From assembly GCA_047967505.1 (NCBI GenBank), contig CM106538.1: 64,000 nt of DNA; one strand, given 5' to 3'. The position numbers and the translations under genes are program-made. The notes beneath the pieces are model-generated. The model was not told the origin of the DNA. It made no database searches and saw only the letters and a list, made by a program, of their open reading frames with translations. Within the stretch, counting starts at the first letter, position 1; the number at the start of each line of letters is the position of its first letter. Positions 10,712 to 49,280 of this stretch are shown here, piece by piece. The stretch comes from Dipteris shenzhenensis. Lineage: Eukaryota.

Positions 10712-13700
10712 TGAAACCTGACAAAATATGAAGAGGGGAGAGGAGAAGAGTGGAGATGAGGAGAGAGGGCACAGGTAGAGAGCACACCACAAATGACTAA
10801 TTCTACACTAGATTTAGTTGAAAATGTAGAATATATACAAACCCTTTTAAGGTTAGGGTTAGGTCATCTAACCCTTTCCTTTATAGCACTCTATATGTGT
10901 TAGTGCGATGCACATATGATCACATGATGTTAAACTGATCTCTCAACACCTTCCCTTAAGATCAACATCATGAAGTAGGCCTTCCCTCAAGATGATGATT
11001 CTGGGGAATCAAAGAAGGACTGAGCATTCCATTCCATCAAACCCCTTTAATGGGAATGTCCTTCCTCTGAGTCAAACCAGGAGCTTGTCCGTACTTCTTG
11101 AAAAGCTCTTTACCGAGTGGTTTGGTAAAGATGTCTGCAACATTTCCTTTGCTATCACAATGCTGCATTGTGATGTCACCAAGTAACACTCTTTCTCTTA
11201 TGAATAGCTCTTGACATCAAGATGCTTTGTCTTGGAGTGATAAATTGGATTCTTGGCCAATGCTTGAGCCGATTGATTATCATAGTATAGTGTTGTTGTC
11301 TTTGATTCATCAAAGTAGTCTGTTTCTGACAATAGTTTTCTGAGCGCCGATTGATTATCATAGTATAGTGTTGTTGTCTTTGATTCATGAAAGTAGTCTA
11401 TTTCTAACAATAGTTTTTGGAGCCATATAGCCTCACATGCACCTGTAGTGAGTGCTCTATATTCTACTTCACTCGAATACAAAGAAATAGTTAGCTGTTT
11501 ATTTGACAACCATGATTTAGCACCTTGACCAAGGAAAAATGCATATCCCTGTATCGATCTTCTGGTCTCATGATCTCCGGCATAATCACTGTCACAATAT
11601 CCATGCAACCTTGGATGACTTCCACTGTATTCTATTCAAAATTGTCTTGTACCTCTGATGTATCTCAAGACTCTTTTGGCTGCATTCCAGTGAAATTGTT
11701 TTGGATTTGCCGTAAACTATGCTAGTGAACTTACTGCATAACCAATATCTAGTCGTGTGATAGTCAGATATATAAGAGATTTGATGAGCTGCTAATAGTG
11801 CCTGTCATTGATGGTAGGCTTTTTTGAATCTTTTATAAGTTTCAAACTCTGTTCCATGGGAGTGGTTGCAATCTTGCAATCTGCCATATGAAACTTCTTC
11901 AAGAGACTATCAACATATTTTAGCTGACTCATAAAGGTGCTGTTTGAATCTCTCCAGAACTCAATACCAAGACAATAGTGCATAAGTCCAAGATCTTTCA
12001 TGTTGAACTCTACAGATAAGTCTTGTTTTGATTTCTTGATGAATCTGACCTTGCTTCTGGTCACAATCAGATCATCTACATACAAAAGTGCAATAGTGAT
12101 GTCTTCCCCTTGAACTTTGTAGTAGAGAGTATGATCTGCATTGGATTTCATGTATCCCAAATCAGCAAAATACTTGTCGATTCTATTGGACCAACTTTTG
12201 GGTGCTTGCTTTAAGCCATAGAGACTTTTCTTGAGATGGCAAACCTGATTCTCTTTCCTGGTTCAACATAACTTGCTGGTTGTTGCATGTAGACTTCCTC
12301 GTCTAGGTAACCATTGAGAAAAGCATTCTTGACATCGAGCTGGTACACATTCCATCTGCTAAGTGTCACTAGGGATATCAAGAACCATATGGAATCCATC
12401 TTTGCTACTGGAGCATAAGTCTCATCATAGTCTTAACCTTATTGCTGTGCAAATCCTTTTGCAACTAATTTAGCTTTGTATCTTTTGATATTTCCATCTG
12501 GAATGTACTTCACTTTGTATACCCATTTGTTTGCTATGGCCTTCTTTCCTGGTGGAAGGTCACATAATTCCCAAGCATTATTCTTGTACAAAGCTTCCAT
12601 TTCTTCATTCATAGCAATTTGCCATTCTGGCTTGTCAACTGCATCTCTGAAGTACACTGGCTCTTCTGTAGCCATGATGGTAGTCATAAGAGCAGAGTTG
12701 GTGGTTTCAACCTAAATTGCTTTGCCTTTCTAAGCATACATCAATCTGGCTGGAGGTCTACTTTTCCTAGTAGACTGTCTCAGTTGCTATGGTTCTTCTC
12801 GAAGTGCTTTGAGCAATTCTTGCTCTTCTTCATCAACTTTCTCTATAGATGACTAAGTACTCGGTGTGTCTATCTCCTATGTGTTTGAAGTTTTCCATTC
12901 TGATTCCTCATCAAAGATTACATCTTTGGAGATAATGACATTTCGGTTGATGGGATCATACAACTTGTATGCTTCGCTGACTTCACTGTAGCCAAACATG
13001 ATGCATTTGCATGACTTCGCATCTAATTTTCTCGATGGTCATCATGTATGGGGACGAGCATTTTCTGAGCGAAATCTTCCGAGCGTCCGAGCGAAGGAAA
13101 AAAAAAGCTTCCAACTATGCATAAATATGGCAAAAATCGATCAGAAGAAAACATAGTTTCACTTAGAAATATGCAAAGTATTATAGCAATGGCTATTTTA
13201 TACAAAAATCTTTAGGTGAATCTGTAGGAATGGTGAGAGCATAATGGGATGGCTTTTGAAGAAACCCACATGTAGAGTAGACTTCTCTATGAAAATTCCC
13301 TTATGATCCTTCTTACAACTTTTACTTAATAGGGGGTGACATTGAAAACCCTCTCTCAACCTATCTTCATGAAAGAGTTTCTTCAAAGAAAACTCATTGA
13401 AGCAAGCCATCCAGGTAGTTTCGCCAGCGAAACCCCTTTGAAGCAAGTCTCCCAAGGTAGTTTCGCTGGCGAAACTACCTTGGACAGCACTTTTAAAAGT
13501 GACATAACTTTCATATCCAATGTCCAAATATAGTCATTCAGCCACTCAAATTGATTGGAACACCCCATTTGAGCACATCTATGGAGTTATATTTTGGAAA
13601 ATCTTTCATATATAGTATTAAATATTACATGTATTTTATGAGAGTGATATATAAGCCTAAGTTAATACTTATTTATAGTAATTTAAACTTCTTTAGAAAC

Positions 13701-14508
13701 ATGTCCATAAATATGCTATAAAAACACTAAAAAGATATTGCCATATGATATAAATGTGTTAATAAGTAATTATATATGCATAGTATTATTACATTGAGAG
13801 TGATTATGAGGAATGTTTCTTAAAGGAATCAACACTTTTTTAAGGTAATAACAGGGGTACAAAGGGATGTCTCTAAATAAGAAAATTATGTTGTGTAAAA
13901 ATGAATGAGTGACTAGTCTGTATATTTGTATGATAAAGGGATCTAGTTCTAGTGAAAATAAAAGTGTAAAAACCATGTTTCCTAAAGAAGAACATTTTCA
14001 AAAATCTCTTGAAAAACATGCTCGGATAAACCTGCTCATAGGTTTTTGCTCGTAAAATTGACGCATCCATCATGTATGTGGGCATATGCTATGCAACCAA
14101 ATATGCGGAGATGCCCAATGCATGGCTTGTGTCCAGTGAATGCTTCATAAGGTGTCATACCCTGAATCGGTTTGGTTAGAAGCCGATTAAGCAAGTAGTT
14201 TGTAGTGGCTATTGCTTCTGCCCAATACTAATTTGGAAGATGCTTTGCTAAAGTACCATTCTTCCTTTCAGTTCTTTCATTCTGTTGATGAGTATCTGCA
14301 CAAGTGAATTGTCTTTGAATGCCGCAACTTCTACAAAAGGTCATGAATGTTGAAGATGTATTCACCTCCTCTATCTGATCTTATGACTTTGATATTTTTG
14401 CCTATTTGGTTTCCAACCATGGCTTTGAATTCTTGATATCTGGAAAAGACTTCAGATTTCTCTTTTAGAAAGTAGACCCAACAATACATGTTGTAGTCGT
14501 CGATGAAA
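10712..14508 (-). mobile_element. 5'-truncated decayed Ty1/Copia (integrase, RT, RNase H, 3' LTR); same family as 49440-53426
   Basis: ORF fragments with KWVYKVK, LDVKNAFLNG, LYVDDL, GYCDSDYAG. 3' LTR 10712-10948 matches 53196-53426 in reverse complement; PPT at 10949-10959; truncated at the integrase FIDD motif near 14508. Confidence 0.92.
13050..14068. mobile_element. Non-autonomous Mutator-like DNA transposon (1019 bp) inserted in the Copia
   Basis: 9-bp TSD ATCATGTAT (13041-13049, 14069-14077); G...C termini with degenerate terminal inverted repeats. The uninterrupted homologous site occurs once in the sister Copia at ~50828. Confidence 0.75.
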
Positions 14509-20070: not shown

Positions 20071-21049
20071 ATGTTGGATATAAAGTTACAAACCGTACTT
20101 AGATCTAACAAGAAGTAATCCATAAAGGAATAGCTTTTGCAAGTCCACAAATATGTTGTTGAATTTGTTGTAAGGGAATGAAACCATATCATCCATAGCC
20201 TTCTTTTTCCCCCATGCTACAATGGAGAGGGTATCATTGATGTGATAGTATTCCAAATCTTGCATTTGACATCTTCATTGCTCACGCCTTTTTCTAATGA
20301 TATCCTCTTTCATGTTGCAAAAATGTTGTGCGTGATACCTTTCTCATGAAGGGTGTCTCTTGGCAACTGATAAAGGGCTTTATAGCCCATGCCTACCTCA
20401 TCGTAGGCATTAACAAATTCAACACAATCGACAATTTGCCCTTTAACCAGATAAGAAGAATTATTGGCTTACAAGACACTCTTACCAACAGGCGCATGAG
20501 ATAACGTGTGAAACAAAGATTCGTGTGAAGTATATGGGAAGGTGCACCGCTATCAAAATACCATGTCTCTGCTATCTCAATTATGATGAAGGTGCATGCT
20601 TTCAATGAGGCATCATAGCTGCAAGTAAAAAATGCCCTTTCATGCTCAACATAGTTGGCTGAAGTATAATCTCTGCTTGTATCATGGGAAGAACCTGAAA
20701 TAGCCATACCAAATTCTTTTTTTCCTTTGCAAGCCACCTAGCTATGTTCAATAATGGCATCAACCCTTCTTAGCGGCATCCTTTTTATCTTTCCCACCTC
20801 CAGATCCAGAAGTACTGCAATAACCATGATGGGATTCATGTTTGGGCTAAGATTTCTTCTTGCCCTTATCCCTGGATGAAAATGCTTGCTTCTCACTACG
20901 AGAATGTGATCACGTATTCTTTCTTGCCTGCTCCTCCTTCAGTGAGAGTGCTACCAACTCTTGAAAAGTAAAAAGATGCAAATTTCCCATCATCGAAGAT
21001 TGAGCAACATATGAAAAGAAAGATATGACTCCAGTAAGGATATACATAT

Positions 21050-21425
21050 ACCTTTGTAAGACTAGAATAAGTCCAATCATACAAATTTAGACTTTTTGTT
21101 GTTCTAAAGACCAAAAATCTACACAGAAAATAAAAGAGAAAATGAAAGAGAAGAAAAAAGAGGAAAACAAAAACTTTTATGAAAAACAAAAGGAAGATAT
21201 ACTTAGCAAGCAAAGAAACACTTATGTCGTCATCAATGCCCAAGCATAAGCAGCTATATTGGGTTTCTAAAGACCCGCGGAGTCTCTTGGGCAAACCCAG
21301 TGCTTACTAAAATACGTCAAATAAACAAAAGAGAAAGAAAACAAGAAATAAAGAAGAAACGAAGAAGGTGACTAAGCAAAAATAAACAAGCAAGTCAAGA
21401 AACAAAAACTTCCAAAAAATTAGAA

Positions 21426-21486
<61 letters not shown>

Positions 21487-21602
21487 AAAACATAAAAAGC
21501 TAAAAGGACCCTTTACACTTATGTATTACTTCCTACAAAGAGGCAAAATTACTTTCCTAACTTAGAAAGCACAAGCATACTCAATCAAACTCTCTTTTGA
21601 AA
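21050..21602 (-). repeat. 3' pseudo-LTR of the Penelope-like element
   Basis: Colinear with 27902-28399; contains a (CT)n tract and a multi-stem segment at ~21196-21306. Confidence 0.9.
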
Positions 21603-24600
21603 CTAAAAGAAAAACAGGCTATTCAGCTCCCCGCTTTTTGTTTTCAGCTTATGTTCAATCATTCTAAACATACCTAAGGCCGATACACCATAGATAAAAG
21701 ACTTCATATCTAAGATTGTGCATAATTTTTCCATTATTTTCCTTGGATTATACCTCTTGTGTAATAGTAAAGTGATCAAATTACTACAATGAGTAATAAA
21801 AGACTTCTTAGTTGTACAAAGGTGGGAAAATCTATGGAATTAGGAAGAAATGACTCCATATTTTGCCAAAGCAGAAATGTTTGAGTCAATGTGAGGCATC
21901 TTTATAATGTGTAAACCACTATAATCAAGTTGTTCACGTTTATCGTAAATATCAACCTCTAATCCTCTGGTAGATTGAGAAAGTCTAAGATCTAAGAAAA
22001 CACAAGAATCCCCTCTTGAAGTGCAGTTCAGTTCACAAGAGTCACGAGGATAGATTCCTTCTCCAAAAGCACAAGAGTCTTTGTACATAAAGTCTTGAAA
22101 GTTAGGAACATCTGGTACAAATAAACCATCTATAAAACACCTAACTTGGCTAAGCTTACGTAAAATGATAGGGCAGGTATTGATAGAAATAAGACGTTTC
22201 ATAAACGCAAATTCATAAGTGAAAAGATAAAAGTTTGCTAAAAAGACGGCACAATTAGTGCCCATGGGGATTCCTATAATTTGTTGAAACAAAGAATCAC
22301 CTATTGTGATGTAAAGATTATCTAAAAGAAAATCTATCCAAGAGCAAAGATCTTCAACACTTACTACCTTTGTGTATCTTTTCTTTTTAGAACCGATGTC
22401 ATGATCTTTATTTTTAGCCACAAAAAGTCAAAGCATAAGGTTGTTTTCTCAACTTTTAGCACTTTGCATCTATCTCAGCTTGAAAACTTCAGCAGCTAGC
22501 TTTTTTATTCTAAACTTCAGGTCTTCCAGCTTGATCTTTGTGTAAAGCATGGTAAAATCATAGGTTTGAAGGAGAATAGGAGACTCTTTTTCCTGAATGC
22601 TTTGAGAGGAATTAAAAAATTTTACAACAGGAATCACTCCTATAGAGTCATTTAAAATCCAACTTTAGTGTGAGGGGATATTTGTCTCCTTTAATAAGTC
22701 CCTCCAAAGTTCATGGACACTAGGCAACATGGCTTTGAAGCAATAGCTTAGCCATTTAGAGACATCCGTCAAAGTAGTCTCACAAGTAGCTGCAATAAAT
22801 CTTGGCTTTTTTGGAGTTTTGTGGAACTCTAAGCAGCACAAAGAAAAGGGATACTTGGATTGCAAACAAACCCAAAAGACTTGCAAAAACACTGGTGTTT
22901 TGAGATCAAATCCTTTTGAGAAACTAAGGCAGGGGCGTAAGTTTTGGCAGACGAGTTCACTTCTCTCAAAAGACATTCTAAGTAAAACTTTTTGCAAATA
23001 AAAACAAAGTTATTGGAACATTTGTCCATATAAGAAATGACAAAATTCCTATGGAATTTTCGAAGAAGAGTTTCATCTTCTTTAGAAAGATGGTTACTTT
23101 GCTTTGAGCAATTAACCAAAGGGACTTCTTCTAATTTCAAAGCAGCTTTCTTTAAGATCTTCCCTTTCCATTCTGAACTCCTAAACATTCTTCTAATTGC
23201 AAAACAAACTTTGAGATTCCCTTATCCATAGCTTTTAAAAGGCAAGACTCTTTAAAAAAGTACAATCAAAATTTTGTGCCTTTCACGAAAAGGTCTCTTA
23301 AGTTACTAGAAAGCAAAATTGAGGTATCAGCTGTGACTAGATGTCCTAAATCAGCATCAATAAAGCTTTGGTCTTACTTTTACAACAACAAAATTCTCTA
23401 AGGATAGAAGATTTTGAATGCTCTGAAAGCCTTTTACCTATCTCTCCATAGTTGAAAGCCTTTTGTCCTAAAGTTTTTACATACTTCCAAGCTACTACTG
23501 GATGCTTCCAAATTCTTCTCACAAAATGAGGAAGAGAATCCATTACTTCAGGGGACTTCAAAATTGAGTTTAAGCCTATCTTGTCAAGAGAGGGAGAAGT
23601 AAAAATACAAATCAAGAGTTCCTTATTTAGATAGACTTCTTTGCTTTAAAAGGAAGCCTTTACTTTTAAGAAGCGATCCAATGAAGTTTTAAGTTGTATA
23701 TAATGGAGCTTATTTGGATTCAAATCCTCAAAAGAGAAGTTTTCCAAGGTGTATTGAAGTTTAAAAATAACTTTGACATTATTATTTTCAAAAAATTTTA
23801 TTGAAAAAAGACCCAGAGACATTAATCTATGTAGGTAGAGTAGTCTTCTTTTATAGTCTCGAGAAGCAAAAACTCTTGGAACTGAGGAAGTTAAAGGAAC
23901 GAAAGGAGGAGGAAGTGGAGGAAGATGAAGTGAGGGAGGCAACTCACGAACAATATGTGAGATTGTAGGAGAGCTAGGACAACCACGTAACATAACTTTA
24001 GGTTTCCATACGAGGTTAGGTGTATGACTATGTTGGTAAAGAGGAATGTTAAAGGGCTTGATATGAGTTCTCCACATCAAAGGGTTCTTTTTCGAGGTTC
24101 TTTTATTTTTACCAAGAGTTGATTTTCCTTCCAAATTAAAACCTCTTGGGAAGAAATTCACAAGGACAAGCAGCCTTGTAAAAATCCTTGGCATTATTAA
24201 AATGGCCCTCTATATGCTCAATGGGAAAGCTATGAAGAGATTCGAAACCAGACTTTGCCATTGCCGCATATAAGGGTTTTGAATCCTCAATTAAGGAATT
24301 CTTCCCATGAACTCTTATAGCTTCCCTAACATGTTCTTGAAAATGAATAAAAGCTGTCCTATAGGTTTGTCCTACATAAAGCATATTACTACTATGTATG
24401 TTATAGACTATTGGGATAAGTGTGATCAAGGGCTTGCTCTAAGGTGCATGTGTGCATCTAGGGGAGTCACATGTGTGTGTGTGTGTGTGTGTAGTAGAAG
24501 CACACCTAGTGCTATGAGGTGTCTAGTCTGTGACCTAAGTGATGATGTAAGCACAAAGGCCCCGACATGGGAGGTTCCTTTGATTTAGCTAGTCCCGCTG

Positions 24601-26834
24601 ATGTAGGGGCTAATTGCCACTGATGTAGGGGAGGTGCCTACACCTTCCTCTCACTCTATATAATGGAGGATCTTCCTTTATTCTAATACATGGATTTTGC
24701 CTCACTTGAGCTCTCTCTCTTTGTGCCATGATGCATCTATTCTATCCCACACACTTCTTCATTTGGTGTCAGAGCTAGTAGGCTTTAGAGAATTCACTTT
24801 GGTAGTGCCACCTCATCATTTTGAGGCTTTCTTCTTTCTTCCTCTTCAGAAATGGCTAAGCTCTGTTCTCTCCATTCCTTGTGCCTTTTACCACGCCCTC
24901 TTAGCTGAAGATTCTACCCCCTGGGACACACCTCTGGCTCAGAGCATTCCTCCAGATTTCAACTCTGTAGCCCGTGTTGATTCAAATGGAGTGCGTCATG
25001 ACTGATCGCGCAATTCCGCTTCTGTGCTCACTCATTTCCAAATTCCTTCAAGCACAAGTTAGGCAATGCCTACAGCTTGCTGCTGGTGAAATATGAGCTC
25101 AAATAGTCCATTGGTTGCAGAGAAATCAACAAAAAGACAATCGATTTTGAGGAAGCTCTCCCAGGCAATGTGGCACACCATTTCGCCCCTCCTCTAGTGT
25201 GCTTACTCTCTGGTATAAAGGTTTCATTTGAGCCTACAAAGCCCCAAATATGAAGATATGTGGAGTGAGAATTCAAGCCTCCAAGTTACTCTGTTCTCTT
25301 GCAAGCATTTTTGACAGTTTTTGGACATTTGATGCTAGAGTAAATGCTAAGATGATGTTTAAGGAATAAAGTGATGCTAAGGTACAGAGCAGAGAATGCA
25401 ATTTCAGATTGAAGTTCAGTTGGGACTAATCTCTTGTCAAGATTCCAAGCTCTCAATGTTCTTCCAATGCTAAGCACTTGAAGAAGACTACAAGAAGAAC
25501 AAAGGTCAAGGTAAAGAAGACCCCAGCCAAGAAGCTTTGGGAGAAGCCAACTGGGTATGCATATGCTAAACAACTAGGCTTTTCTAAGTTTATCTTTAGT
25601 AATCTACATTTGTATGGTGAGGGAGATTTCTTTGGTCAACAAGATTAGTCATTTTGTAAGAGAGTAGACATTGCCTGATAAAGGTAAGACCCTCTCATGG
25701 CTACCTATAAAATTGACAAGTTCAATGGCCAACTCAATCCTCTAAAGAAGGTGAATCAACCACAACCAAAGGTAAAGGGAAGGCAACTGACTCTTGTTCT
25801 ACACCTACAGATGCAAAAAGGATAGAGAAAGCTTGTGCAATAATTGCATTAGGTTTGGGAGATGATTATGTACATCACATTTTAGATTTGAAATCCCCTT
25901 TTGAAGCATGGCATAAGTTAGACATATTATTTGGTGCTAGCTCTCATACTTCCAAATTGAATTTGAAAATTAAGTTCTTGAACTTAAAATGGAGGGAGAC
26001 AATGTTGCAGTTCATGTTAATACTTTGAGGAGTCTTATGACACAATTAGCCTCAATTAACTCTCCAGTCACTGAAGATGATGCTATGGCTGTGCTCTTGA
26101 AGAGCATGCCTCAAGACTTTGACTATATTGTGACTACTTTGAAGGATCTTCCCCAACCCACACTAGAGGGCATCATCAGTGCTTTACAAGAGGAGGAAAG
26201 AAAGAACACTTCAAGAATGGGTAAAGTGCACACAAAAGCACTTGCAGTAAAGTTTTCAAAGAGCAGGTACAAGGCATGCAAGCATTGTGGGAAAAACAAT
26301 CATGTTATAAAATCAACCCTTGCTCTTATTGTGGCAAGAACAATCACTCAGAGAAGTTTTGCAATGAGAAAAAGTAGAGTATGACAAAATCTAGTTAAAG
26401 AGAGAACTCGATCGACAAATGAAGCATCAAACCTTGTGGTAAAAGATAAGGACTTTGCCTTTTGAGCAATTTGTCTTTGAAATTTTTGTTTATCATCACT
26501 TGGTCAAATTTTGAGGTTCTCTGCCTGGAGTAGTACTCCAAAAAGAATGTCATGTGTTTTGTCTTTTATAAATCACCTCAGGTCACCATATGATGTAGGC
26601 CATGTGATATGTGTATTTGGTCTATCCCATTTTTGTAAACCTTGACCCTTGGGCACCTTTGCTAGCATGAGATCCTAGCCATAAATTTATCCTTGACCAC
26701 CATGAGATGGCATGAGAAACTATGTGACTAGATGTATCCTTGACATAGCAAGAGGCAAACCCTCGAGGGGGGGTATGTTGGGATAAGTGTGATCAAGGGC
26801 TTGCTCTAAGGTGCATGTGTGCATCTAGGGGAGT

Positions 26835-26871
<37 letters not shown>

Positions 26872-27528
26872 TAGAAGCACACCTAGTGCTATGAGGTGTC
26901 TAGTCTATGACCTAAGTGATGATGTAAGCACAAAGGCCCCCACATGGGAGGTTCCTTTGATTTATCCAGTCCCACTGATGTAGGGACTGATTGCCACTGA
27001 TGGAGGGGAGGTGCCTATACCTTCCTCTCACTCTATATAATGGAGGATCTTCCTTCATTCTAATACATGGATTTTGCCTCACTTGAGCTCTCTCTCTTTG
27101 TATCATGATGCATCTATTCTATCCCACACACTTCTTCATAGACAACATAAATTACTTGAGTGGCATGAATAGGACTACTTGTTTCTAAGACGTCTTAGTT
27201 TATTAAAAATTCTTATGTTATTATTAGTATAATGAGTGCTAACTAATAAAGCCTTAAAAATAGACCAATTAATGTTACCTTCCCCAAAATCATGAAGATT
27301 ATTCATGTTTGACCTAGCTAAAAAGTTAAACCTTTCTCTATATGTTTCAACTTTTTTGTTTTGATTTATCGAGCTAGACCCAACTAAATCACCTACCAAA
27401 GAGACAAGACCATCACTCGAATTTCCAATGTTATTCGGTGAGGTCAAACGATCAACTTGCTTGCACTGTCCCTGCCCATCCCAAGGAAGTTTCTCCCTTG
27501 CTATATCTCCTAACTCTAGCAGGAGCAA
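21603..27528 (-). pseudogene. Disrupted GIY-YIG + RT polyprotein of the Penelope-like element (interrupted by 24409-27138)
   Basis: After removing the insertion: QVIYVVYNIHSSNMLYVGQTYRTAFIHFQEH...FPRGFN. Linker HPVVAWKYVKTLGQKAFNY...FCCC...GHLVTADTS..LRDLFVKGTKF. RT motifs DKCSNNFVFICKKFY, FHKTPKKPRFIAA, TYDFTMLYTKI, QIIGIPMGTNCAVFLANFYL, RCFIDG, FLDL, IYDKRE, PHIDSN. Several frameshifts and stops. Confidence 0.88.
24409..27138 (+). mobile_element. Gag-only non-autonomous LTR element (TR-GAG-like, 2.73 kb)
   Basis: LTRs 24409-24761 (start mutated to TA) and 26776-27138; PBS TGGTGTCAGAGC 24764-24775; PPT GAGGGGGGG ~26765; TSD TAGAC (24404-24408, 27139-27143). Copia-type gag fragment 25989..26384 with a CxxCxxxxH knuckle; no pol. 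Confidence 0.93.
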
Positions 27529-27901
27529 GACTAGTATTTAGAGGGGCTTGCTTGCACAGTCGTTACTCGTCCCAAGGTAACTCCTCCCTTATTACTACAA
27601 GGGAATGTCACAGAAGCCAGATGACATCCCAGGAGATCGCCCTATTGGTTTCCAAAAGGCGAATTCATCATAGCATGTATCGCTAAGCCAATATACCAAA
27701 AGAAAGAGAAAGAGAAAAGGAAAGTTACAACATCATTTGAAAATAATGTTGGACATGCTTATGCTAGAGAAAATGTGATAAACATGCATTTTCCACTTTA
27801 GGAAGAAGCTACCGAAGAGGCAAAGATAGAAACTAGTACGACAAAGACAAAAGTAGCTTTCAAGCCAAAGTTACTTATTCATAAAGTTATTTAATCTAAT
27901 A

Positions 27902-28245
27902 ACCTTTGTAAGACTAGAATAAGTCCAATCATACAAATTTATATTTTTTGTTGTTTTAAAGACCCAAAATCTACATAGAAAATAAAACAGAAAATGAAAG
28001 AGAAGAAAAAAGAGGAAAACAAAAACTTTTACGAAAAACAAAAGGAAGACATACTTAGCAAGCAAAGCAACACTTATGTCGTCATCAATGCCCAAGACCC
28101 ATGGAGTCTCTTGGGCAGACCCAGTGCTTACTAAAATACATCAAATAAGCAAAAGAGAAAGAAAACAAGAAAGGAAGAAGAAAGTAAGAAGGTGACTAAG
28201 CAAAAATAAACAAGCGAGTCAAGAAACAAAAACTTCCAAAAAACT

Positions 28246-28290
<45 letters not shown>

Positions 28291-28399
28291 AAAAAGCTAA
28301 AAGGACCCTTTACACTTATGTATCACTTCCTACAAAGAGGCAAAATTACATTCCTAACTTATAAAGCACAAGCATACTCAATCAAACTCTCTTTTGAAA
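27902..28399 (-). repeat. 5' pseudo-LTR of the Penelope-like element
   Basis: Colinear with 21050-21602, with a 28-bp deletion and a shorter (CT)n. Confidence 0.9.
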
Positions 28400-30291
28400 A
28401 GGAGTTCACTATAGTGGAAACAAATTGTGCATCTCGAATAACTTCATTAACATTCAAGAGTTCTAGTGACATATTCCTGCATAGTGTCCCCTTGATTCAT
28501 GTGCAACCCATCAAGCTCCCTACACAAAAATGAGACTGTAGCCTCATTAGACCTTCATACATGTTCTCCAAAATATCCCATGAAGTCCAACAAGACCGAA
28601 TATGAGGAATTATGAACCTCTTTACATTAAATGAAATCAAAGACAACGCTTTTAGTATCCCACCTCCTTTGCTCAAGAATAACACATGCAGGTGGTTGTG
28701 CTTGCGCTTGCCCAGCTAGAGCAGCCCCCACCTTGCTGTGGAGGAGTACATGACACCTATGCAGGCACCTGTGACGTAGTCCCACAGGCCCTTGGCAACC
28801 AAAAGATTATGAATCATAAAGCTCCAAAGAGGAAAGAGATCATTTGGATTATGATGTGCCATTTGAGCAAAGTAAAAAGATTCAAGAAAACTCAGCAAAG
28901 CTCACGTGTTATGAAGGCCTTAATCAAGTAAGAGACCACTTTCAAAGCCAGTACTTGGCTCAAGGATGCACCTCAAATCTGCCAAAAAAGTCCAGTGCTG
29001 GGACACATACTGCAATCTTAGAATCCTCTGCTCAAAACTCAACCAATGCTTGGCTTAACAAGGCATAAACCCTCTGAAAATCACCTCTGTCTTGAACCAA
29101 ACAGCCAATTGCAAAACCCAATTCCTCTCAAGTAAGTAAATGCGTGACGGGTGAAGACGGGAGCCAACCCGATGCGCAATGAAGAAAGTGTGGGTTTTGT
29201 TTGTATGGCTCAATCAATAGTCCGGGATATGGGACCAAGATAGTAAAATGACAGCTCCAAAAGCCCAAACCTAGACACCAATTAAGTTGACCAGCAGGCT
29301 GAGGTCAAAACTGAGCTGAAAATTACATCAAAACTGTTCCACAAGGTCAAAAACAGAGATAAACTGACCCGGAACAGCTGCTACAGCTTCAAAAGCTCCA
29401 TTGTGTCAAATGGTCCAAAAAGGTGCAGCTTGTCAAAAAACAGATTGACCAGATCCTAGGCAGATTTAGAGAGCTCATAACCTGTCAAAAACAACTCGCA
29501 TAGCTGTAGACAGCCTCCAAAAACCCTAAAATAGGTTCAGCCCTGTCTTGAAATGTATGCAACAGTGAAAAACAAGTCGACCAACTTGAGAACTGTTCCA
29601 AAACTGTCAAAAAATATTCTCCCAGTTCAAGAAGCTTCCAAAAACAGGCACCTATGTCTGGAACAGCAATTCGAAGCTGTTTCTGTTGAAAAAAACTCCA
29701 AAATTACGAAAAAAACAGTCGACTAGCAAGAAAACAGCCCGAAACCAGCAAGAAATGAGTCGTCCAACCTTGGAACAACTGTACGAAATTCATCCAAAAC
29801 AGGTCGAAATTAACTGAAGTCCCTTCAAAAACCAGTCACCAACTCAGAAAACAGCAGCAAATGCCCTCCAAAAGAGGCGCTCTGTAGAACCCTATTGACG
29901 GTAGCTGCCAACAAAAACGAGCTGTTTTGTAACTGTTTTCCTCAATGAATCTGGAGTTCTTTGTGACAAAACAGCCCACGGGTTTGGGGAAGGCGTTAAG
30001 AAACAAGAGGAACCCGCTCTGATACCAATGTTGGAAATGAAAGCGAGTGAACGCGAGAGAATGGAGCTGAAGGAATCTAGAATGAAATTGCAGCAGCAAA
30101 ATGAAGTACAAAGCTAGGGTGGTCATAGAGACAAAACCCTAGGATGGACCCTTACTGGAGTTAAGACATGTGTGGCAACTAACAAACTAGTCCCTTATTA
30201 CATAACATTGGCCACTGCCTTAGGAAATATAAATATTTCCAACACTTTGCGACAATGCAAATGTACTTATGCGATGACCTAGGAATACTGA

Positions 30292-30392
30292 CTTCAGAGG
30301 TCAATATCATTGCTTGTTCAACCAGGGGATTCTAGAAATAATGAATTCAGAGGTCAATATCATTGCTTGTTCAACCAGGGGATTCTAGAAAT
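30292..30392. repeat. Tandem duplication of ~47 bp with a short spacer
   Basis: TTCAGAGGTCAATATCATTGCTTGTTCAACCAGGGGATTCTAGAAAT occurs twice about 54 bp apart. Confidence 0.9.
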
Positions 30393-33115: not shown

Positions 33116-36100
33116 TGTTGAGATATCGAGCTCCACTCGCGATATGCCAAGGTGACCGTTGTGCATTTATGTCACCGACTTGTTAGCTGGAGATGCAGTT
33201 GGTACACCGCCCACGAATAATAGCTGGATGACAGCTATCCTTATCTACACTAGTTCGTGGCTCAGTTAGTATGCCACCTTAGTTAGTTGAGTTTGGTTTG
33301 AGACCCACATATAGGGTTCTTCTATTTCTTTGTATTAGAGTTCTTTTGGCTTTCATAACTAAGAAGAGGAAAACTGTTTTCAGCCTCCACCTTTGTGTGT
33401 ATTCCCCCATTGTGCATGTAAGAAAGCCACAAGTGAAACTCCTTCCCTCTCTCCCACAATCTTCACATGGTATCAGAGCCTTGTTCGTGGTAAGGAGCTC
33501 AAGAAAGCAAGCTAAGTTCGTGGTGTCCTGGTAAGAGACGAAAGTGGTATTTCACCACACAGTCACTTCGTAGTGACGATTTTGCATCAACAGGTAACAA
33601 GCATGAATCTGCAACTCCCAATATCTCTACACAAAGGCATACGATGCAATTTCTGCGGCAACTTTTCACCGACCCACAGAACAGTGGTCGCACAGCAAAA
33701 ACAGGGCCTTTTTCTGAGTGCCTGCGGAGAACTTCCGTCTCCAAAACGGGCCCCGAAATGACCTCGAATCAGAAAAATAACCCTAAACCGTAAACCCCGC
33801 AACATATACTGCGCTCTCGCCACACCGCGAAGGGCGTCTCAATCTGAGACAATGCACTCTTGCACTTCTGGCTGTGCTACCTGCAGAGATTTGCTCCCAA
33901 ACTCGAAATGTGTTTTTTGCAGTGACAGAATATTTTGCAGTGTTCTGTAATGGCATCTGATTCTCTTTCACAGATTGTCACTGAAAAGCTTGACAAGAAC
34001 AACTTCCAGGCATGGAAGTTTAGAATGACGAATTTCTTGATGGGAAAAGGCTATTGGGAGTTCATTACAGGAAATGAAGAAGAACCTGTTCTTCCTAATG
34101 TTCCCAGTCAACAGGAAATGCAGGCATTCAAAGGATGGCATGAGAGAGCCAGGAAAGTTATGTACTGGCTGTCTATCAGTATTTCGGACTCCATGATTGT
34201 GCATATTCAGGATGCAAATACGCCAAAGGAGGCATGGGATACTTTGGCAAAAATGTATAGCACAAATACGCAAGCCAGGAAAATGCAACTCAAACAGGAG
34301 TTGCACAATGTGCAGAGAGAAAATTTGAGCATAAATGACTACCACATGAAAGTGAAGAAAATTGCAGATGCACTTGCTTCCATTGGGTCGCCAGTGGATG
34401 ATGACGATTTGGTCTCTGTGACCTTGAATGGTCTAGGAAAGGATTATGCACAGTTCCGGACATCCATTGCCGTCCGTGAAAAATTTCCTAATTTTGAGGA
34501 GTTGATTGCTCTTCTAATTTCCGAAGAGCAGAGAAATGGTGGTGCATCTTCTTCAGCAGGAACTTCAAAAGAAACTGTCTTCTACTCAAATGCTGGCAGA
34601 GGTAGAGGCAGAGGTAGAGGAGGCCGATCTGCAGGCCGTGGTAGAAATCAGAATATGCAGCAAACGCAAGAAAACCAGTCCTATGCAGGAGGACGTGGTA
34701 ACTCTAGAGGCAGGGGGAGCCAAAGAGGCCGTGGTGGATGGCAGAGAGGCCAAAATGCAAACAGCAATATTGAATGCTACTATTGTGGCAAGATGGGTCA
34801 TATGGCTAAGGACTGCTATAAAAAGCAGAATGACATTATGAATGGAAAATTGCAGCAAGGCAATTATGCATCCTCTAGTAGACAGGGTGATGACAGAAAT
34901 GAGCATTTGTTTATGGTGCAGCATATGACAAATTCTGTAACAAGTGCAGAAGAAAGCAATGATGTGTGGTATGTTGACTCGGGTGCATCAAACCACATGA
35001 CAGGTCACGCTGAATGGATACAGGATGCAAGAAAAATGGAAAAACCAAGATTTGTGGAGACTGGTGATGATACCGCACATCCTATTGTGCAGATTGGCAA
35101 AATTCCTTTGTCTATGCAGGATGGGAAAAAGAAATACTTGTCTGATGTATTTCATGTCCCGAACATCACCAAGAACCTGGTTTCTGTTGGTCAAATGGTT
35201 GAGCAGGGCTTGCAGGTTAGATTTAATCCTCATGGATGCTTTGTTGAGGATATGAAAAATAATGGTCGCTTGATAGCAAAAGGAAAGAAGAAGGGCAGGA
35301 TGTTTACGTTAGATGCAGACATGCCTCAATTGAGTGCAGCAATGTTTGCACATGGGACCGGTGTAGTTGCAGATATTGATATCTGGCACAAACGCATTGG
35401 TCATGTTAATATACAGCGACTTAAATCAATGCAAGCCCAAAATATTGTTGCAGGATTGCCTAAATTCAAGGTTGCAGAAATGCACAAGGTTTGTGAAGCC
35501 TGTCAATTTGAAAAACAGGCAAGGAAACCTTTTCCTAGGCATGTTCAAGAGAGTAAAAAGCCATTGGAATTAATCCACTCTGATGTGTGGACTACAAAAG
35601 CTGCATCTATTGGAGGCTGTCACTATTTTGTCACATTTATTGATGACTTCAGCAGAAAACTGTGGGTGTATTTTATGAAAAAGAAAAGTGAAGTGTTTGG
35701 GCACTTCAAAGCTTTCAAAGCTATGGTTGAAAAAGAAACAGGCCTGCAAATAAAATGCCTAAGGTCAGATGGAGGGGGAGAGTACCTCTCAAATGAGTTT
35801 GCAAGGTTCTTGCAGGAGCATGGTATAAAGCAGCAATATTCATGCAGTCATACCCCACAGCAAAATGGAATTGCAGAAAGAAAAAACAGGCATATTGGAG
35901 AGGTATCTCGGGCTATGCTAAATGAAAAAGATCTATCAGATTATTATTGGGCTGAAGCAGTTGCTACAGCAGTCTATATAATGAACAGGACTCCCACTGC
36001 AGCAATACATGGCATGACGCCAGAGGAGATGTATACTGGTAGGAAACCAGATATTTCTCATTTGAAGATTTTTTGTTGCATTGCCTATGTCCATGTGCCA

Positions 36101-38623
36101 GATGAGTTGAGGTCCAAGTTGGATCCAAAAGCTGAGAAGTGCGTCTTTATTGGTTATTCTCTGCAGCAAAAAGGGTATAGATGCTATAACCCTTCTACAC
36201 GAAAGTTCACAGTGAGCAGAGATGTTGTTTTTGATGAGATGAGCAACTGGTATAAACCAGTAAATGTGATGATTGATGTAGATGCACAAAATGGTAATGC
36301 TCCACAGAATGCACAGCAGCAATCACAAAATATCAGTGGACCTGGAGTGTCCTCTACCAGTGGTTCACATACTTCGCCATGGACAGGCAGATTGAGATCA
36401 GGAGAATCCCCTCAAAGCAATGCAGAGAGTGGTACGCAGGTATCACGAAAAGGAAAAGAGAAGGTAGATCAACTCATGTTTGATGTGAATGCAGGTCACT
36501 CTTGTGTGGATGGTGAATCCAGTGGCTCAGAACAGAGCATTGATGATGAGTTGGGTATTCCTTCTGTTGTTACACCTGGAGTAAGAAAGACCAGGGATTT
36601 TTTGAGAGCACCTGGAAGTGAGCCTATTTTGCGCAGGTCTACCAGGGTTAGGTATCCTGTGAATAGGCTGAAATATGATGGATTTACAGCCATTCACTAT
36701 GCCTATATGGTCAAAGTGATACAGGAACCAGAACCCACTTCTTTTGAGCAAGCCATGGGAAATGAAAAATGGGAGAAAGCCATGGATGAAGAAATGGATG
36801 CCTTGGATGCTAATGCTACATGGGAATTGGTGCCTTTGCCTAAAGGCAAGAATGCAATTGGCTGTAAGTGGGTTTATAAGATCAAGCACAATGCAGATGG
36901 TTCTGTGAATAGATACAAGGCAAGATTAGTTGTGAAGGGATATGCACAGACATATGGCATTGATTATGAAGAAACTTTCAGCCCGGTTGCAAGGATGGCA
37001 ACCGTAAGAGCAGCGATTGCTATGGCTGCATCAAAGGGATGGTCTTTACATGAGATGGATGTAAAGAATGCCTTCTTGCATGGTGATTTGCAAGAAGAGG
37101 TCTTTATGGAGCAGCCAGCAGGTTATGTGCATGCTACTCATCCTGAGTTTGTTTTCAGGTTGAAGAAAGCCTTGTATGGCTGCAAGCACCTAGAGCATGG
37201 TCTGACAAGATAGGACAGTATCTTGTCACTATTGGCTTTCAGATTTCCAAGGCAGATTTCTCACTCTATGTGAGAAAAACAGAGAAAGGGATTATGCTGC
37301 TGGTCATTTATGTTGATGATTTGATCATCACAAGTGATAGTGATGAAGATATCCTTCATGTGAAAATGCTATTGAGGCAGAAGTTTGAGATGAAGGATTT
37401 GAGAGAGCTGCGTTATTTCTTGGGCATTGAGGTGATTAGATCACCAAGTGGGATACAGCTCTTGTAGAGGCAGTATGGACTGGACATGCTGTCCAAATAT
37501 GGGATGACAGGCTGTAAGCCTATTTCAGTTCCTTTGGAGCAGAATGTGAAGCTGAGTGCAGATGCAGGTGAGCTTCTGGAAGACCCTACTATGTACAGAC
37601 GCATAGTAAGAAGTTTGATTTACATGACTATTACCAGGCCAGATTTGAGCTATGCTGTTGGGTTGGTAAGTCAGTTTATGCAGGCTCCAAGGAAACCGCA
37701 TTTGGATGCGGCTAGACGCATACTCAGGTATGTGAAGTCCACATTGCAGTATGGACTATTTTATGAGGCTAGGGTTCAGATACAGTTGCATGGATACACT
37801 GATGCTGATTGGGCTGGTAGTATTTCTGATAGACGATCTACCAGTGGATATGTGTTCTCTTTTGGGAGTGCTGCAGTCACTTGGAGCAGCAAGAAACAGC
37901 CTACAGTTGCCTTGTCGAGCACAGAGGCTGAGTACAGGGGTGCAGCAATGGCTGCATGTGAGGTAGCTTGGTTGCATAAGCTACTCTATGATATGCATCA
38001 GTCTACAGATGGGCCAGTTGTCATTTATTGTGACAACATGAGTTAGTATACACTTGGCAAAGAACCCAGTCTTTCATGCTAGAACAAAGCACATTGAGGT
38101 GCATTATCACTATGTGCGGGAGAAAGTGTTACTAGGTCTTATTGATCTAGTTTATGTCAGCACAGAGGATCAGGTAGCTGACATATTCACGAAAGCATTG
38201 GGCGCAGAGAAGCTGCGCAAGTTCAGAGACCTGCTTGGTGTGCAGGATTTGGGATTGAGCTCGAGGGGGAGTGTTGAGATATCGAGCTCCACTCGCGATA
38301 TGCCAGGGTGACCGTTGTGCATTTATGTCACCGACTTGTTAGCTAGAGATGCGGTTGGTACACTGCCCACGAATAATAGCTGGATGACAGCTATCCTTAT
38401 CTACACTAGTTCGTGGCTCAGTTAGTATGCCACCTTAGTTAGTTGAGTTTGGTTTGAGACCCACATATAGGGTTCTTCTATTTCTTTGTATTAGAGTTCT
38501 TTTGGCTTTCATAACTAAGAAGAGGAAAACTGTTTTCAACCTCCACCTTTGTGTGTATTCCCCCATTGTGCATGTAAGAAAGCCACAAGTGAGACTCCTT
38601 CCCTCTCTCCCACAATCTTCACA
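33116..38623 (+). mobile_element. Full-length, relatively young Ty1/Copia LTR retrotransposon (5.5 kb)
   Basis: 352-bp LTRs 33116-33467 and 38272-38623 differing at 6 positions by eye, all transitions; PBS TGGTATCAGAGCC 33468-33480; PPT GAGGGGGAG before 38272; TSD ATAAT (33111-33115, 38624-38628). Confidence 0.98.
33950..38311 (+). pseudogene. Copia gag-pol (gag, zinc knuckle, protease, integrase, RT, RNase H) broken in RT/RNase H
   Basis: CYYCGKMGHMAKDC, WYVDSGASNH, integrase DDE region, IYVDDL, GYTDADW. Frameshift near 37180 and TAG stops at ~37465 and ~38044. Confidence 0.95.
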
Positions 38624-41256: not shown

Positions 41257-43320
41257 CTACTCCGTACCTTTTCTAGACCTAAAGTTTTCCCTTAGCTCTG
41301 CAAATTTTTTGAAACATTGCCCCTTGGACTTTCCTGGCACTGCAGCTGCTATTCGATCCCATCGCTGTACTGTATCTTTGGGAAAAGCCTTCAATGCCTT
41401 TACAAGAGCACCTTCCTGTACGTCAGACCATACATCCTGTTCAGAGCTGGCTGCCGAGCCATTTGAACTAGGCTGACTCCCATTTGGAACTGATTTATCT
41501 TCTGCTTTCTCCGCAACTTCATTATCAGCAATAGCTTTACTTGCATTGACAATATCTCCATTGCTAGCCATGGCAACGGCCTTGACATTGCCATTTGTCA
41601 AAGGGGAGCTTGGTACAGGTTGAATAGAAACAGCATCAGGAGAATCTTCGCGCGTGGACAAAGGAGAGGCAATGACTACGTTAGTAACTTTCCTCTTCTC
41701 CAAGAAAGAATCGAAGGCCTTTGAAGAATCTGGCTTCTGCAAAAGGACGGTCTTGATCGCCTTAAGGATCTCTTCCACAGAGCGGTCAGTCCCAATGTAA
41801 TTTGACACAACCTCCCACCTTTGCGCAGTCCCCTTGGGATATTTCTGCATGGCCTTTCGCAACAGCTCCACCTCATCCTTGCTCCAAGGTTTTTCCTTCT
41901 TCTCTCCGGTGTTGAGGGTACTAACAGCCTTACTTCTCTCCTCAGAGCCTTCCAAATTCTTTTTCGGATAGTCAGTGGCAGTACTGTTTGCTGCATGTGA
42001 AGATGATGACAAACTTGAGCCTTTCTGTCCATCAAGAACTTGCTTCAAAACCTTACTCTGATCCTGGGCACCCTTCTTCTCCAGATCCTCACACAAGCGT
42101 CGAAGCTCATCAATCTCTAACGACACGCATAGGTTCTCGATATCATCCTCAAAAATTCCAAAGACCTTCCTGCTTACAACATCAGAAGCAACAACTCGTA
42201 GCCTTGACCTTTCCTTTCTAAGCAACTTCTTCTCCCTCTCTTTGGACTTCTTCTGGGCAGCAGCTTCTTCTGCAGCTTTTCTTTCTTCTTGCTCCTTTCT
42301 TAGCCTTTCTTCCTCTAATAATCTGGCAGCTTCTTCCTCTTTGTCTTTCTTGGCCTGCAGTTTCGCTTGTTTCTTCCTGAGTTTCTCAGCCTTTTCTTCT
42401 TCCTTCCTTCTCGCTATTCTCGGATCCCTTTTGTATGCATTTTCGACCATAGCGCGTACCCTCACGCTTTCTTCCTTCTTAGCTTTCTCCCTCAGCTTCG
42501 CATTCTGCCTTTCCATCCATCTTTTATGTTCTCTGCTTTCTGCCAACTCAAGATCGTATTCGTCGGCATGGGGAAACTCCCGCCAACTTTTGAAACCATA
42601 CCAAAAATCGTAGAAGCTATCAACTTCGGCGAGAGGAGTGTCATCGCTCCCGAGAGAGGGCACCGGTTGAATGACCGACCATCGCCCATTCCTTACAAAC
42701 ACAGGCCCATACACCTTCAGAAAATCTTGAGGGGCGCAGTCCCCAGGCACTGCATCATCGAACTCATCCGTAGAATCATAGACCCTTCTCTTCACGGGAT
42801 CTATCAGCACCTCATACGCCTCCTGAATGGCCTTAAAATGCTGATCGATTTCTTCCTTCTTGGCCTCTTTGGCCTCCTCGGTTTCTTCTGCAAGAAGAAG
42901 GGCCGCCTGTTTGTCAGGGTGATGCTTCAACGCCGCTTCCCTGTAGCATTTCCTGATCTGATCCTCGGTAGCAAGGTACCGCAGATGACTGAGACCTAGC
43001 AAGGCATAATGATCCTGCTGCTGCTGCCCAAGCGTCGATTTTTTCTTGCCTTTGAACTCGAACGAATCCGCGGCCGTCGAGAAGCTTTTCTCCTTGCTAT
43101 CCGGATCAACATCGTCGCGCTCCTCCTCCTCCTCCTCCCCCCGGTGGTGCTTATCGGCAAAACCCAAAAGCCGGCGAGCCAAGGAGTGGAAGGAGAACCC
43201 GGCGGGCTCAAAGCGGGAAGTCTTGAGGGGCAAGCTATTGGAAGAAGCGATGAAGGGGAGGCGATCTGGGAAGTCAGGCGCGGGGTAAGAGAGGAGGAGC
43301 CGGGGAAGGGGAGCCGGCAT
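41257..43320 (-). CDS. ZRF1: DnaJ homolog subfamily C member 2 / zuotin-related factor (J-domain, ZUO1-like region, charged coiled coil, two SANT/Myb domains), single coding exon
   Basis: 687-aa intact ORF; J-domain QQDHYALLGL...HHPDKQ...RRVYDSTDEFDD; FYDFWYGFKSWREF and AYKRDPRI zuotin motifs; SANT repeats WSKDEVELLRKAMQKYPKGTAQRW and WSDVQEGALVKALKAFPKDTVQRW. Confidence 0.97.
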   Translation of the reverse strand: MPAPLPRLLLSYPAPDFPDRLPFIASSNSLPLKTSRFEPAGFSFHSLARRLLGFADKHHRGEEEEEERDDVDPDSKEKSFSTAADSFEFKGKKKSTLGQQQQDHYALLGLSHLRYLATEDQIRKCYREAALKHHPDKQAALLLAEETEEAKEAKKEEIDQHFKAIQEAYEVLIDPVKRRVYDSTDEFDDAVPGDCAPQDFLKVYGPVFVRNGRWSVIQPVPSLGSDDTPLAEVDSFYDFWYGFKSWREFPHADEYDLELAESREHKRWMERQNAKLREKAKKEESVRVRAMVENAYKRDPRIARRKEEEKAEKLRKKQAKLQAKKDKEEEAARLLEEERLRKEQEERKAAEEAAAQKKSKEREKKLLRKERSRLRVVASDVVSRKVFGIFEDDIENLCVSLEIDELRRLCEDLEKKGAQDQSKVLKQVLDGQKGSSLSSSSHAANSTATDYPKKNLEGSEERSKAVSTLNTGEKKEKPWSKDEVELLRKAMQKYPKGTAQRWEVVSNYIGTDRSVEEILKAIKTVLLQKPDSSKAFDSFLEKRKVTNVVIASPLSTREDSPDAVSIQPVPSSPLTNGNVKAVAMASNGDIVNASKAIADNEVAEKAEDKSVPNGSQPSSNGSAASSEQDVWSDVQEGALVKALKAFPKDTVQRWDRIAAAVPGKSKGQCFKKFAELRENFRSRKGTE

Positions 43321-43511
43321 GATGGAGGATGAGCAGTTACATCAAAGAGGGGAAGGAGAGGCTATGGCGATGGAAACTTCGGAGGAGGAAGAGAGGCTAT
43401 GGCGATGGCGGTGCCTGCTGTTGCTTATGATGCTGCTGTTTCTTCTTGTTCCCTCTTCGTCCCTTTCTTTTTTTTTCGCAATGCCGTAGTTGTGTAAATA
43501 ACCTTTGCAAT

Positions 43512-48950: not shown

Positions 48951-49073
48951 TACTTTCATCTCTGTGATTATGATAAACTAGGATTTCTGCAATGGCATAC
49001 TATGAACTAAGACCTTACTTCTAGAATTTATCTTGACAATTGTCATGCTAACGATCATTTACATAATTTTCAA

Positions 49074-49280
49074 ACTATCTATGATGATTGCCTTGATTTT
49101 ATGTTGATTACCAACTCTATGCTGATTGCCTTGATTTTACGTTGATTACCAACTCTATGTTGATTGCTTGATTTTATGTTGATTTGTAGGCTACATATGC
49201 TGATTTGTAGATTGTTTATGCCGATTGCCTTGATTTTCTATTGATTACCAACTCTATTTATGTTGATTACGAACTCTATT
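49074..49280. repeat. Minisatellite with a ~38-bp unit, about 4-5 decaying copies
   Basis: TGATTGCCTTGATTTTATGTTGATTACCAACTCTATG at 49085 and 49123, partial at 49161 and ~49223. Confidence 0.85.

Follow-up and report, generated by a model that had tools for sequence, protein, structure and literature searches.

Penelope-like elements (PLEs) carry a reverse transcriptase (RT) that has been placed next to telomerase, and the closest described relatives of the element reported here are the Chlamys PLEs (Craig, Yushenova, Rodriguez & Arkhipova 2021, PMC8557442). In the accessible text of that paper, Chlamys are endonuclease-first PLEs with a CxC motif, a G.KF motif, a DK-x motif and a long insertion in the fingers domain (IFD), without the CCHH cysteine pair and without the CX2-5CxxC finger, both of which Naiads have; their minimal organisation is that of Chlamys-1_meVir (fig. 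6 legend). The hosts given in the accessible text and metadata sheet are green algae, streptophyte algae, Selaginella (endonuclease-less families only) and Physarum, with no fern genus, and for land plants the same source lists only the endonuclease-less spike-moss families that target ribosomal DNA (rDNA) and one horizontal transfer into conifers. Endonuclease-bearing PLEs have so far been regarded as all but missing from land plants. Here, we describe a PLE on the minus strand at 21050-28399 of a 64,000-nucleotide (nt) stretch of Dipteris shenzhenensis DNA (contig CM106538.1 of GenBank assembly GCA_047967505.1; the whole stretch is hereafter called the window). The region is very probably one decayed insertion of a Chlamys-type endonuclease-first PLE in a fern-lineage plant. 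A preliminary description, made from the sequence alone, had proposed a Chlamys-like element and had counted spike mosses among the Chlamys hosts; that host list needs amending, in that the Selaginella families lack the endonuclease and so set no land-plant precedent for this architecture.

The whole region reads as one PLE with a nested insertion, and its domains follow the order N-terminal extension, GIY-YIG endonuclease, CxC linker, telomerase-like RT and 3' untranslated region (UTR). From 27901 to 21050, minus the nested insertion, this gives a full-length unit of ~4.1 kb (Table 1). The nested insertion, a long terminal repeat (LTR) element, splits the endonuclease. Upstream of it the frame reads ETSSPIHATQVIYVV (27144-27194), and downstream, from 24408 downward, (V)YNIHSSNMLYVGQTYRTAFIHFQEH...FFPRGFNLEGKS; taken from the duplicated target site on, this frame gives VYNIHSSNMLYVGQTYRTAFIHFQEH...PIEHIEG... 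and then, after a frameshift, FFPRGFNLEGKS. The same stretch lies in one unbroken open reading frame (ORF) in P0309, a 362-amino-acid (aa) protein from a public assembly (...TTQVIYVIYNIHSSSMMYVGQSYRTAFIRFQEH...FFPKGFNLEGKS), which matches both sides of the insertion, the downstream side with 66% identity over 103 columns (tblastn E 3e-38). P0310 likewise runs uninterrupted where the LTR insertion divides the window copy, and the more distant P0007 and P0035 match PIHATQVIYVV at the collinear position. Because P0309 carries the stretch uninterrupted, the junction reading is not a product of chance, and the proposal that joining 27139-27180 to 24403 and below restores a GIY-YIG domain is confirmed. 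No cysteine lies between VIY and YVG, again as first described: the window core reads VIYVVYNIHSSNMLYVG (0 Cys), and the cores of P0309 and P0310 contain 0 Cys each.

The identity of this domain was established through its relatives. An iterated search from the P0309 segment linked the endonuclease to 23 of 190 PLE-related proteins, and N-terminal Pfam GIY-YIG matches at E ≤ 0.01 were present in 9 of the 18 long relatives scanned, two of which (P0033 and P0073) exceeded the curated cut-off. In an alignment of the endonuclease (A1), the columns that are invariant or nearly so correspond to the GIY-YIG signature (IY, Y.G, R, H and E). Of these, Y, G, H and E are invariant, R is kept in all rows except that of the window, and GFN is present. 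Beyond the GIY-YIG core, the family thus conserves the catalytic R, H, E and N, which the window copy does not (R to H, Glu region deleted). The predicted structure of P0310 (mean predicted local distance difference test [pLDDT] 81) has a beta-beta-alpha-alpha-beta-alpha core, for which Foldseek ranked the I-TevI catalytic domain first to third in the PDB (probability 0.99-1.00, target template modeling [TM] score 0.76-0.78), with T4 EndoII, UvrC, Hpy188I and Eco29kI among the lower matches. At the sequence level, a profile of a second alignment (A2) retrieved only I-TevI from the PDB, and weakly (E 0.011), and the A1 profile retrieved nothing at E ≤ 1.

The linker that follows carries HPVVAWKYVKTLGQKAFNY and FCCC (ORF 23346-23645) and, after a frameshift, IDADLGHLVTADTSIL...LFVKGTKF. 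Its contents are a basic and proline-rich stretch, VVAWKY, the CxC (FCCC, ~23382-23393), GHLVTAD and KGTKF, and the linker motifs initially reported (P-V-W-Y, CxC, GHxxTxD and KGxKF) were all recovered in this form. The alignment consensus of the linker is CxC...GHVxTxD...GxKxR, and P0155 has GCAC and GTKF. The linker is followed by DKC in the window and its fern relatives and by DKA in P0007 and P0035. The CxC, GH..T.D, G.KF and DK plus variable residue of the window match the diagnostic motifs in the accessible text of PMC8557442.

The RT lies in a single frame with in-frame stops (23009-21603). Searched with tblastn, P0151 matched it with 55% identity over aa 120-579 (E 2e-161; 5 stops in the high-scoring segment pair), and the RT ORF alone matched 4221 library proteins at E ≤ 0.001. 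The RT part had no sequence-level match in the PDB. P0151 is the RT of the closest intact relative, and its predicted structure (pLDDT 80) matched telomerase RTs at all of ranks 1-14 (E 1.4e-9 to 7.6e-6). DRT2, DRT9 and group II intron RTs ranked lower, the first group II intron RT at rank 18 (E 2e-4), and no long interspersed nuclear element (LINE) RT was among the matches listed. The predicted fold fits a PLE RT, as the preliminary description had it. In 5/5 close relatives, RT motifs A and B lie 97 aa apart; the median is 93 aa for rows on the cysteine-less side of the RT phylogeny given below (32 rows) versus 81 aa on its CxxC side (10 rows), and 11 of the 58 rows, the window included, matched no motif pattern and are not in the count. 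These values fit the account of Chlamys as having a longer spacer than Naiads. The window ORF stops at 21603, directly past the thumb, and the pseudo-LTR described below follows; in the relatives, the protein terminates no more than a few residues from the same position. Nothing endonuclease-like was found after the RT, and no C-terminal GIY-YIG was present among the best 150 RT matches listed. We also considered a canonical PLE with a C-terminal endonuclease and rejected it on the end of the ORF and the lack of a hammerhead match.

Endonuclease and RT belong to one protein in the more distant relatives. All 10 long proteins searched with tblastn matched the RT region, and five of them (P0007, P0022, P0033, P0035 and P0042) also matched the endonuclease at E ≤ 0.01. 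The matches of these five are collinear, in the order endonuclease, linker and RT, with no match elsewhere in the 64 kb, and each of the five proteins (938 aa in P0007) carries GIY-YIG and RT in one ORF, so that the initial coupling of the two domains holds. Closer to the window, a 'hypothetical protein' of Ceratopteris richardii at NCBI (P0152) has 67% identity to the RT ORF. Candidates for a canonical PLE outgroup were sought among the 190 proteins, seven of which have >150 aa after the RT; the six scanned were chimeric gene models or had no post-RT domain, and P0092 has its endonuclease at the N terminus. Separately, four public gene models (P0074, P0077, P0100 and P0108) fuse a PLE RT fragment to Ras, ubiquitin hydrolase (UCH), BNR and Mab-21 domains, and these fusions of PLE RT and host domains are probably annotation chimeras from unmasked elements of this kind.

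The cysteine motifs and the RT phylogeny separate the relatives in the same way. A cysteine pair in the GIY-YIG core was present in 7/7 CxxC relatives and in 0/11 cysteine-less relatives (10 with no Cys, P0007 with one), and an upstream CX2-5CxxC was found in 5/7 of the former and 0/11 of the latter, P0309 and P0310 included. The upstream 60 aa of the window show no CX2-5CxxC pattern. In a maximum-likelihood RT tree of 37 rows, which left out P0097 (long branch) and 20 unlabelled or partial-endonuclease rows, one branch with support of 100/99 separates the CxxC from the cysteine-less side; 13 rows hold all 7 CxxC relatives, and the other 24 hold all 9 cysteine-less relatives, the window and its 5 close relatives. 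Within this tree the window and P0151-P0155 form a clade (100/99). A quick tree of 58 rows gave the same split.

The unit is bracketed by two direct repeats of 553 and 498 nt, which share 95.2% identity over 498 aligned columns in a global alignment. The other 55 nt are indels, including a (GA)26 at 21429-21480 versus a (GA)16 at 28250-28281. The upstream repeat begins one base past the position equivalent to the ORF stop codon (21603-21605 in the downstream copy), and its other end adjoins unique sequence leading into the coding region, that is, the 5' end of the full unit. Since the upstream repeat consists of 3' UTR only and stands directly before a full copy, the repeats are the partial tandem of a PLE and not LTRs, which bears out the earlier reading of ~0.5-kb direct repeats that are not true LTRs. 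An Rfam scan of 20500-29000 (E ≤ 5) returned 4 weak matches, none of them a hammerhead ribozyme, and no inverted 5' copy, typical of many PLE insertions, was found.

At the 5' end of the unit, P0309 matched 27144-27901 (tblastn) in four collinear pieces, which lie in frames -3/-1/-2/-3 and include one in-frame stop. This region also contains an internal duplication at 27455-27600 (minus strand; GGVTLGRVTTVQASP and GETSLGWAGTVQAS in adjacent frames), which is a feature of the family and not local damage, because P0309 carries it too. Directly upstream of the endonuclease (27178-27300, minus strand; P0309 aa 150-200, P0310 aa 11-55) lies a module conserved in the fern family, with the consensus RERFxFLARSNxxNLHDFGEGxIxWxxFKxxIVSTHYTNNxI..LxRLRxLRxKH. 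It has no Pfam match, and the P0310 model shows it as two confidently predicted helices (residues 21-34 and 39-52, pLDDT ~90). P0007 retains only its last part.

Compared with P0309, P0155, P0151 and the ORF map, the copy has at least six frameshifts (near 27544, 27456, 27178, 24170, 23375, 23175, which is the 3' edge of the linker, and 22850). Its in-frame stops number at least eight: five interrupt the RT, at least two the linker and one the N-terminal region. The catalytic Arg of the R..H motif is replaced by His (FIHFQEH versus FIRFQEH), the region of the catalytic Glu has lost ~9 codons and carries a frameshift, and the RT active site FVDD has become FIDG. Because of these frameshifts, stops and active-site substitutions the copy can no longer move or encode protein; judged by its sequence, it is dead, a fossil without function.

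The nested element is 2.73 kb long, with LTRs of 354 and 364 nt (24409-24762 and 26776-27138) that are 96.0% identical. Its LTR termini are TG (TA in one copy)...CA, and a 5-bp target-site duplication, TAGAC, flanks it at 24404-24408 and 27139-27143. The junctions could be read directly, and the coordinates initially given for this LTR insertion bounded by a target-site duplication, with its excision at 24409-27143, are exact. Only a Copia-type gag is recognisable inside, on the plus strand (Retrotran_gag_2, E 3.5e-13 and 1.5e-9); the element holds gag alone, without protease, integrase or RT, and looks like a non-autonomous gag-only Copia derivative. Beside its 5' LTR, TGGTGTCAGAGC may resemble a primer-binding site for tRNA-iMet.

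TABLE 1 Coordinates of the PLE insertion, its flanks and other features of the window
Feature	Position	Strand	Content and evidence
Downstream flank, probably same decayed Copia-type element as upstream flank	20393-21049	-	gag end to protease/Pol_BBD start (WYFDSGAPSH); Pol_BBD E 0.086
3' UTR of full-length unit = downstream pseudo-LTR	21050-21602 (553 nt)	-	Repeat families; alignment
RT, DKC motif through RT motifs to thumb	21603-23176	-	P0151 tblastn; library search
Linker	23177-24083	-	ORFs; tblastn with P0155, P0007, P0037, P0160; alignment consensus
GIY-YIG, second half	24084-24408	-	YNIHSSNMLYVGQT...FIHFQEH...PIEHIEG...FFPRGFNLEGKS; tblastn with P0309 and P0310
Nested Copia-type LTR retrotransposon	24409-27138	+	Repeat families D1, D6; splits endonuclease; not part of the PLE
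5' end of full-length unit	27144-27901	-	Presumed 5' UTR, N-terminal extension remnants (27178-27695), first half of GIY-YIG core
Upstream pseudo-LTR	27902-28399 (498 nt)	-	5'-truncated tandem copy, 3' UTR only; direct-repeat families D3-D5; alignment
Upstream flank, probably decayed Copia-type gag, N-terminal part	28400-28901	-	DUF4219 E 0.014 (28716-28901); Retrotran_gag_2 E 0.28 (28497-28715)
Tandem repeat	30279-30384	+	53-nt unit, two copies, 94% identical; unrelated to the PLE
ZRF1/DnaJC2 gene	41257-43341	-	Intact, intronless, 694 aa; DnaJ, zuotin-homology and two Myb/SANT domains
Copia-type element or fragment	12262-14507	-	
Copia-type element or fragment	33926-37213	+	
Copia-type element or fragment	47906-52051		
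Copia-type element or fragment	56888-59439	-	
Copia-type element or fragment	61037-64000	+	

Both flanks of the PLE carry weak traces, collinear and on the PLE strand, of what is probably a single decayed Copia-type element. An intact Copia protein encoded in the window matches the upstream flank with its aa 27-49 (28767-28835, E 4e-4) and the downstream flank with its aa 189-202 and 343-358 (20928-20969 and 20531-20578, E 0.73 and 0.13), in the right order. An insertion into a Copia-type gag is therefore likely, if not firmly shown; of the earlier claim of an insertion in a Copia gag rather than in rDNA, the collinear flank signals speak for it, but the matches are sub-threshold. More widely, retrotransposons crowd the window around its one host gene: there are at least five further Copia-type elements or fragments, in one of which a frame of 1095 aa stays open from gag to mid-RT. 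The host gene is ZRF1. Among named sequences it matched those of ferns best (Adiantum, 66%; Ceratopteris, 65%), and a quick tree placed it inside a clade with three named ferns (SH-like approximate likelihood ratio test 100), where, with one further protein, it is sister to the rest of the clade. On the ZRF1 sequence, which had been put forward as the means of identifying the host, the host is a fern-lineage plant that is not close to the sampled polypod ferns.

Several points weigh against assigning the region to a Chlamys-type PLE. The window pieces have no Pfam GIY-YIG or RVT_1 match at E ≤ 1, and the same is true of P0309, P0310, P0151, P0152 and P0155, so that the domain calls in the window and its close relatives rest on transitive homology and predicted folds; of the hidden Markov model searches proposed at the outset, those made directly on the window gave no match, and support came from the distant relatives, the profiles and the predicted I-TevI and telomerase folds. 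The Foldseek E values of the endonuclease model are weak (0.012-0.1), though its TM scores and probabilities are high. Among the fern-family proteins recovered, none covers endonuclease and RT together: P0309 terminates past the endonuclease, and P0155 and P0151 begin within the linker. Unlike many described Chlamys, the PLE has no (CA)n or (C)n microsatellite at its junctions, and the evidence on the element in its host comes from a single copy. Finally, the groups in the trees were labelled by endonuclease motif, and the trees are unrooted and contain no named Chlamys, Naiad, canonical PLE, TERT or LINE references. The RT tree places the window on the side with cysteine-less N-terminal endonucleases, with the split supported at 100/99. 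It is this motif-labelled tree and the defining motifs that support the Chlamys-like assignment, in place of the named references that the preliminary description had envisaged.

With no named Chlamys in the trees, the family could instead be a separate lineage of endonuclease-first PLEs in vascular plants, sister to the curated Chlamys, with a zinc-finger-less endonuclease by common ancestry or parallel loss. The fern family stands well apart as a clade on a long stem (0.51 changes per column), its nearest neighbours are weakly supported (57/52 and 81/88), and it has an N-terminal module of its own (LHDFGEGxIxW..FK..IVSTHYTNN, in P0309, P0310 and the window). We consider this unlikely, as all the motifs by which the accessible text of the describing paper recognises Chlamys are present and both trees nest the fern family within the cysteine-less group instead of next to it. 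Very unlikely is an animal Naiad-type or other foreign PLE transferred horizontally into a plant. PLE transfer into conifers is cited in the accessible text of PMC8557442 (for a canonical PLE), and only a minority of the tree neighbours have a named taxon, which leaves some room for a foreign donor; however, the window endonuclease has neither the core cysteine pair nor the upstream finger of the Naiad type, its RT is split from the CxxC side, and the 55-67% identity of the Ceratopteris relatives is close to the divergence of ZRF1 (65%), which fits long residence in ferns. A Naiad was rejected on the same cysteines and the same split of 100/99. That a stray GIY-YIG fragment sits upstream by chance, with the RT belonging to an unrelated PLE (endonuclease-less or canonical) or to some other retroelement, is hardly credible even though the frame is broken many times between the two, given five independent single-ORF proteins collinear with both parts and the linker, one pair of pseudo-LTRs around the whole unit, the lack of endonuclease-like sequence after the RT, and relatives' proteins that end close to the stop at 21603.

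For a Chlamys-type PLE, an intact member of the family would encode one protein of ~1,100 aa, with a short helical N-terminal module, a zinc-finger-less GIY-YIG nickase, a basic and proline-rich CxC linker and a telomerase-like RT with an enlarged A-B spacer. By analogy with what is established for PLEs, the nickase would cut chromosomal DNA, and the RT would copy the element RNA onto the exposed 3'-OH by target-primed reverse transcription. A partial-tandem insertion would then have placed a 5'-truncated copy of the 3' UTR directly upstream of the full copy, and the ~0.5-kb pseudo-LTRs would follow from it. As for the history of this copy, it probably landed in the Copia-type gag; the gag-only LTR element split it afterwards, and decay followed.

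What is new is a member of the known Chlamys kind from a group of hosts for which none had been listed, which widens the host range. The family is already in public data, unnamed, as P0152 of Ceratopteris richardii, and it was seen in this host, in that one gene model and in several other assemblies. No description of PLEs or Chlamys in ferns was found in the accessible full-text literature searched (PMC8557442, PMC11630846 and PMC10288648 included; subscription journals, Repbase and Dfam, where the family may already be annotated, lie outside this scope). Fern annotations likely mislabel its members as genes or unknown repeats, because the window pieces and the five closest relatives scanned have no Pfam GIY-YIG or RVT_1 match at E ≤ 1 and one of these relatives stands at NCBI as a 'hypothetical protein'. 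A Chlamys-type family in ferns whose endonuclease is conserved partly closes the gap from streptophyte algae to seed plants, and it is relevant to the question of whether plants lost PLEs a single time or repeatedly. A broader proposal, for and against which we see the case as evenly balanced, is that endonuclease-bearing Chlamys-type PLEs persisted beyond streptophyte algae into vascular plants, probably by vertical descent, and diversified into a fern family marked by an N-terminal helical module of its own. With the horizontally acquired conifer case set aside, no PLE lineage that has an endonuclease and is native to land plants would precede it, and some members with intact FVDD and R/H/E/N may still be active.

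Among known systems, the canonical PLEs (Penelope/Poseidon, Neptune, Nematis and Hydra) resemble the window element in their telomerase-like RT, GIY-YIG nickase and pseudo-LTRs, but their endonuclease is C-terminal to the RT and has CCHH, and their pseudo-LTRs hold hammerhead ribozymes, whereas in the window a stop and a 3' UTR come after the thumb. The PLE-X elements of Selaginella and Chara, according to the accessible text of PMC8557442, share land-plant or streptophyte hosts, membership in the wider Chlamys group and the CxC motif; they have no GIY-YIG, carry canonical hammerhead ribozymes and target 28S rDNA in Selaginella, whereas the window element has an endonuclease, no hammerhead match and a position in a Copia-type element. 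Animal Naiads, in the same source, have the same order of endonuclease, CxC linker and RT, pseudo-LTRs and no hammerhead, and their RT was found in the same search; they differ by two core cysteines and, usually, an upstream CX2-5CxxC, neither of which the window family has, and relatives on the Naiad-type side have an A-B spacer ~16 aa shorter and are set apart by the 100/99 split. Chlamys comes closest. The fern family differs from it in the fern-lineage host of the window copy, the conserved helical module upstream of the endonuclease, and the location of that copy away from (CA)n or (C)n microsatellites. As described in the accessible text of PMC8557442, Chlamys shares with it the N-terminal GIY-YIG without the CCHH cysteine pair and without the CX2-5CxxC finger, the CxC linker, G.KF, DK with a variable third residue, probably a long spacer between RT motifs A and B at the IFD position, partial-tandem pseudo-LTRs without a canonical hammerhead ribozyme, and a size range of 3.3-8.2 kb, inside which the 4.1-kb unit of the window falls.

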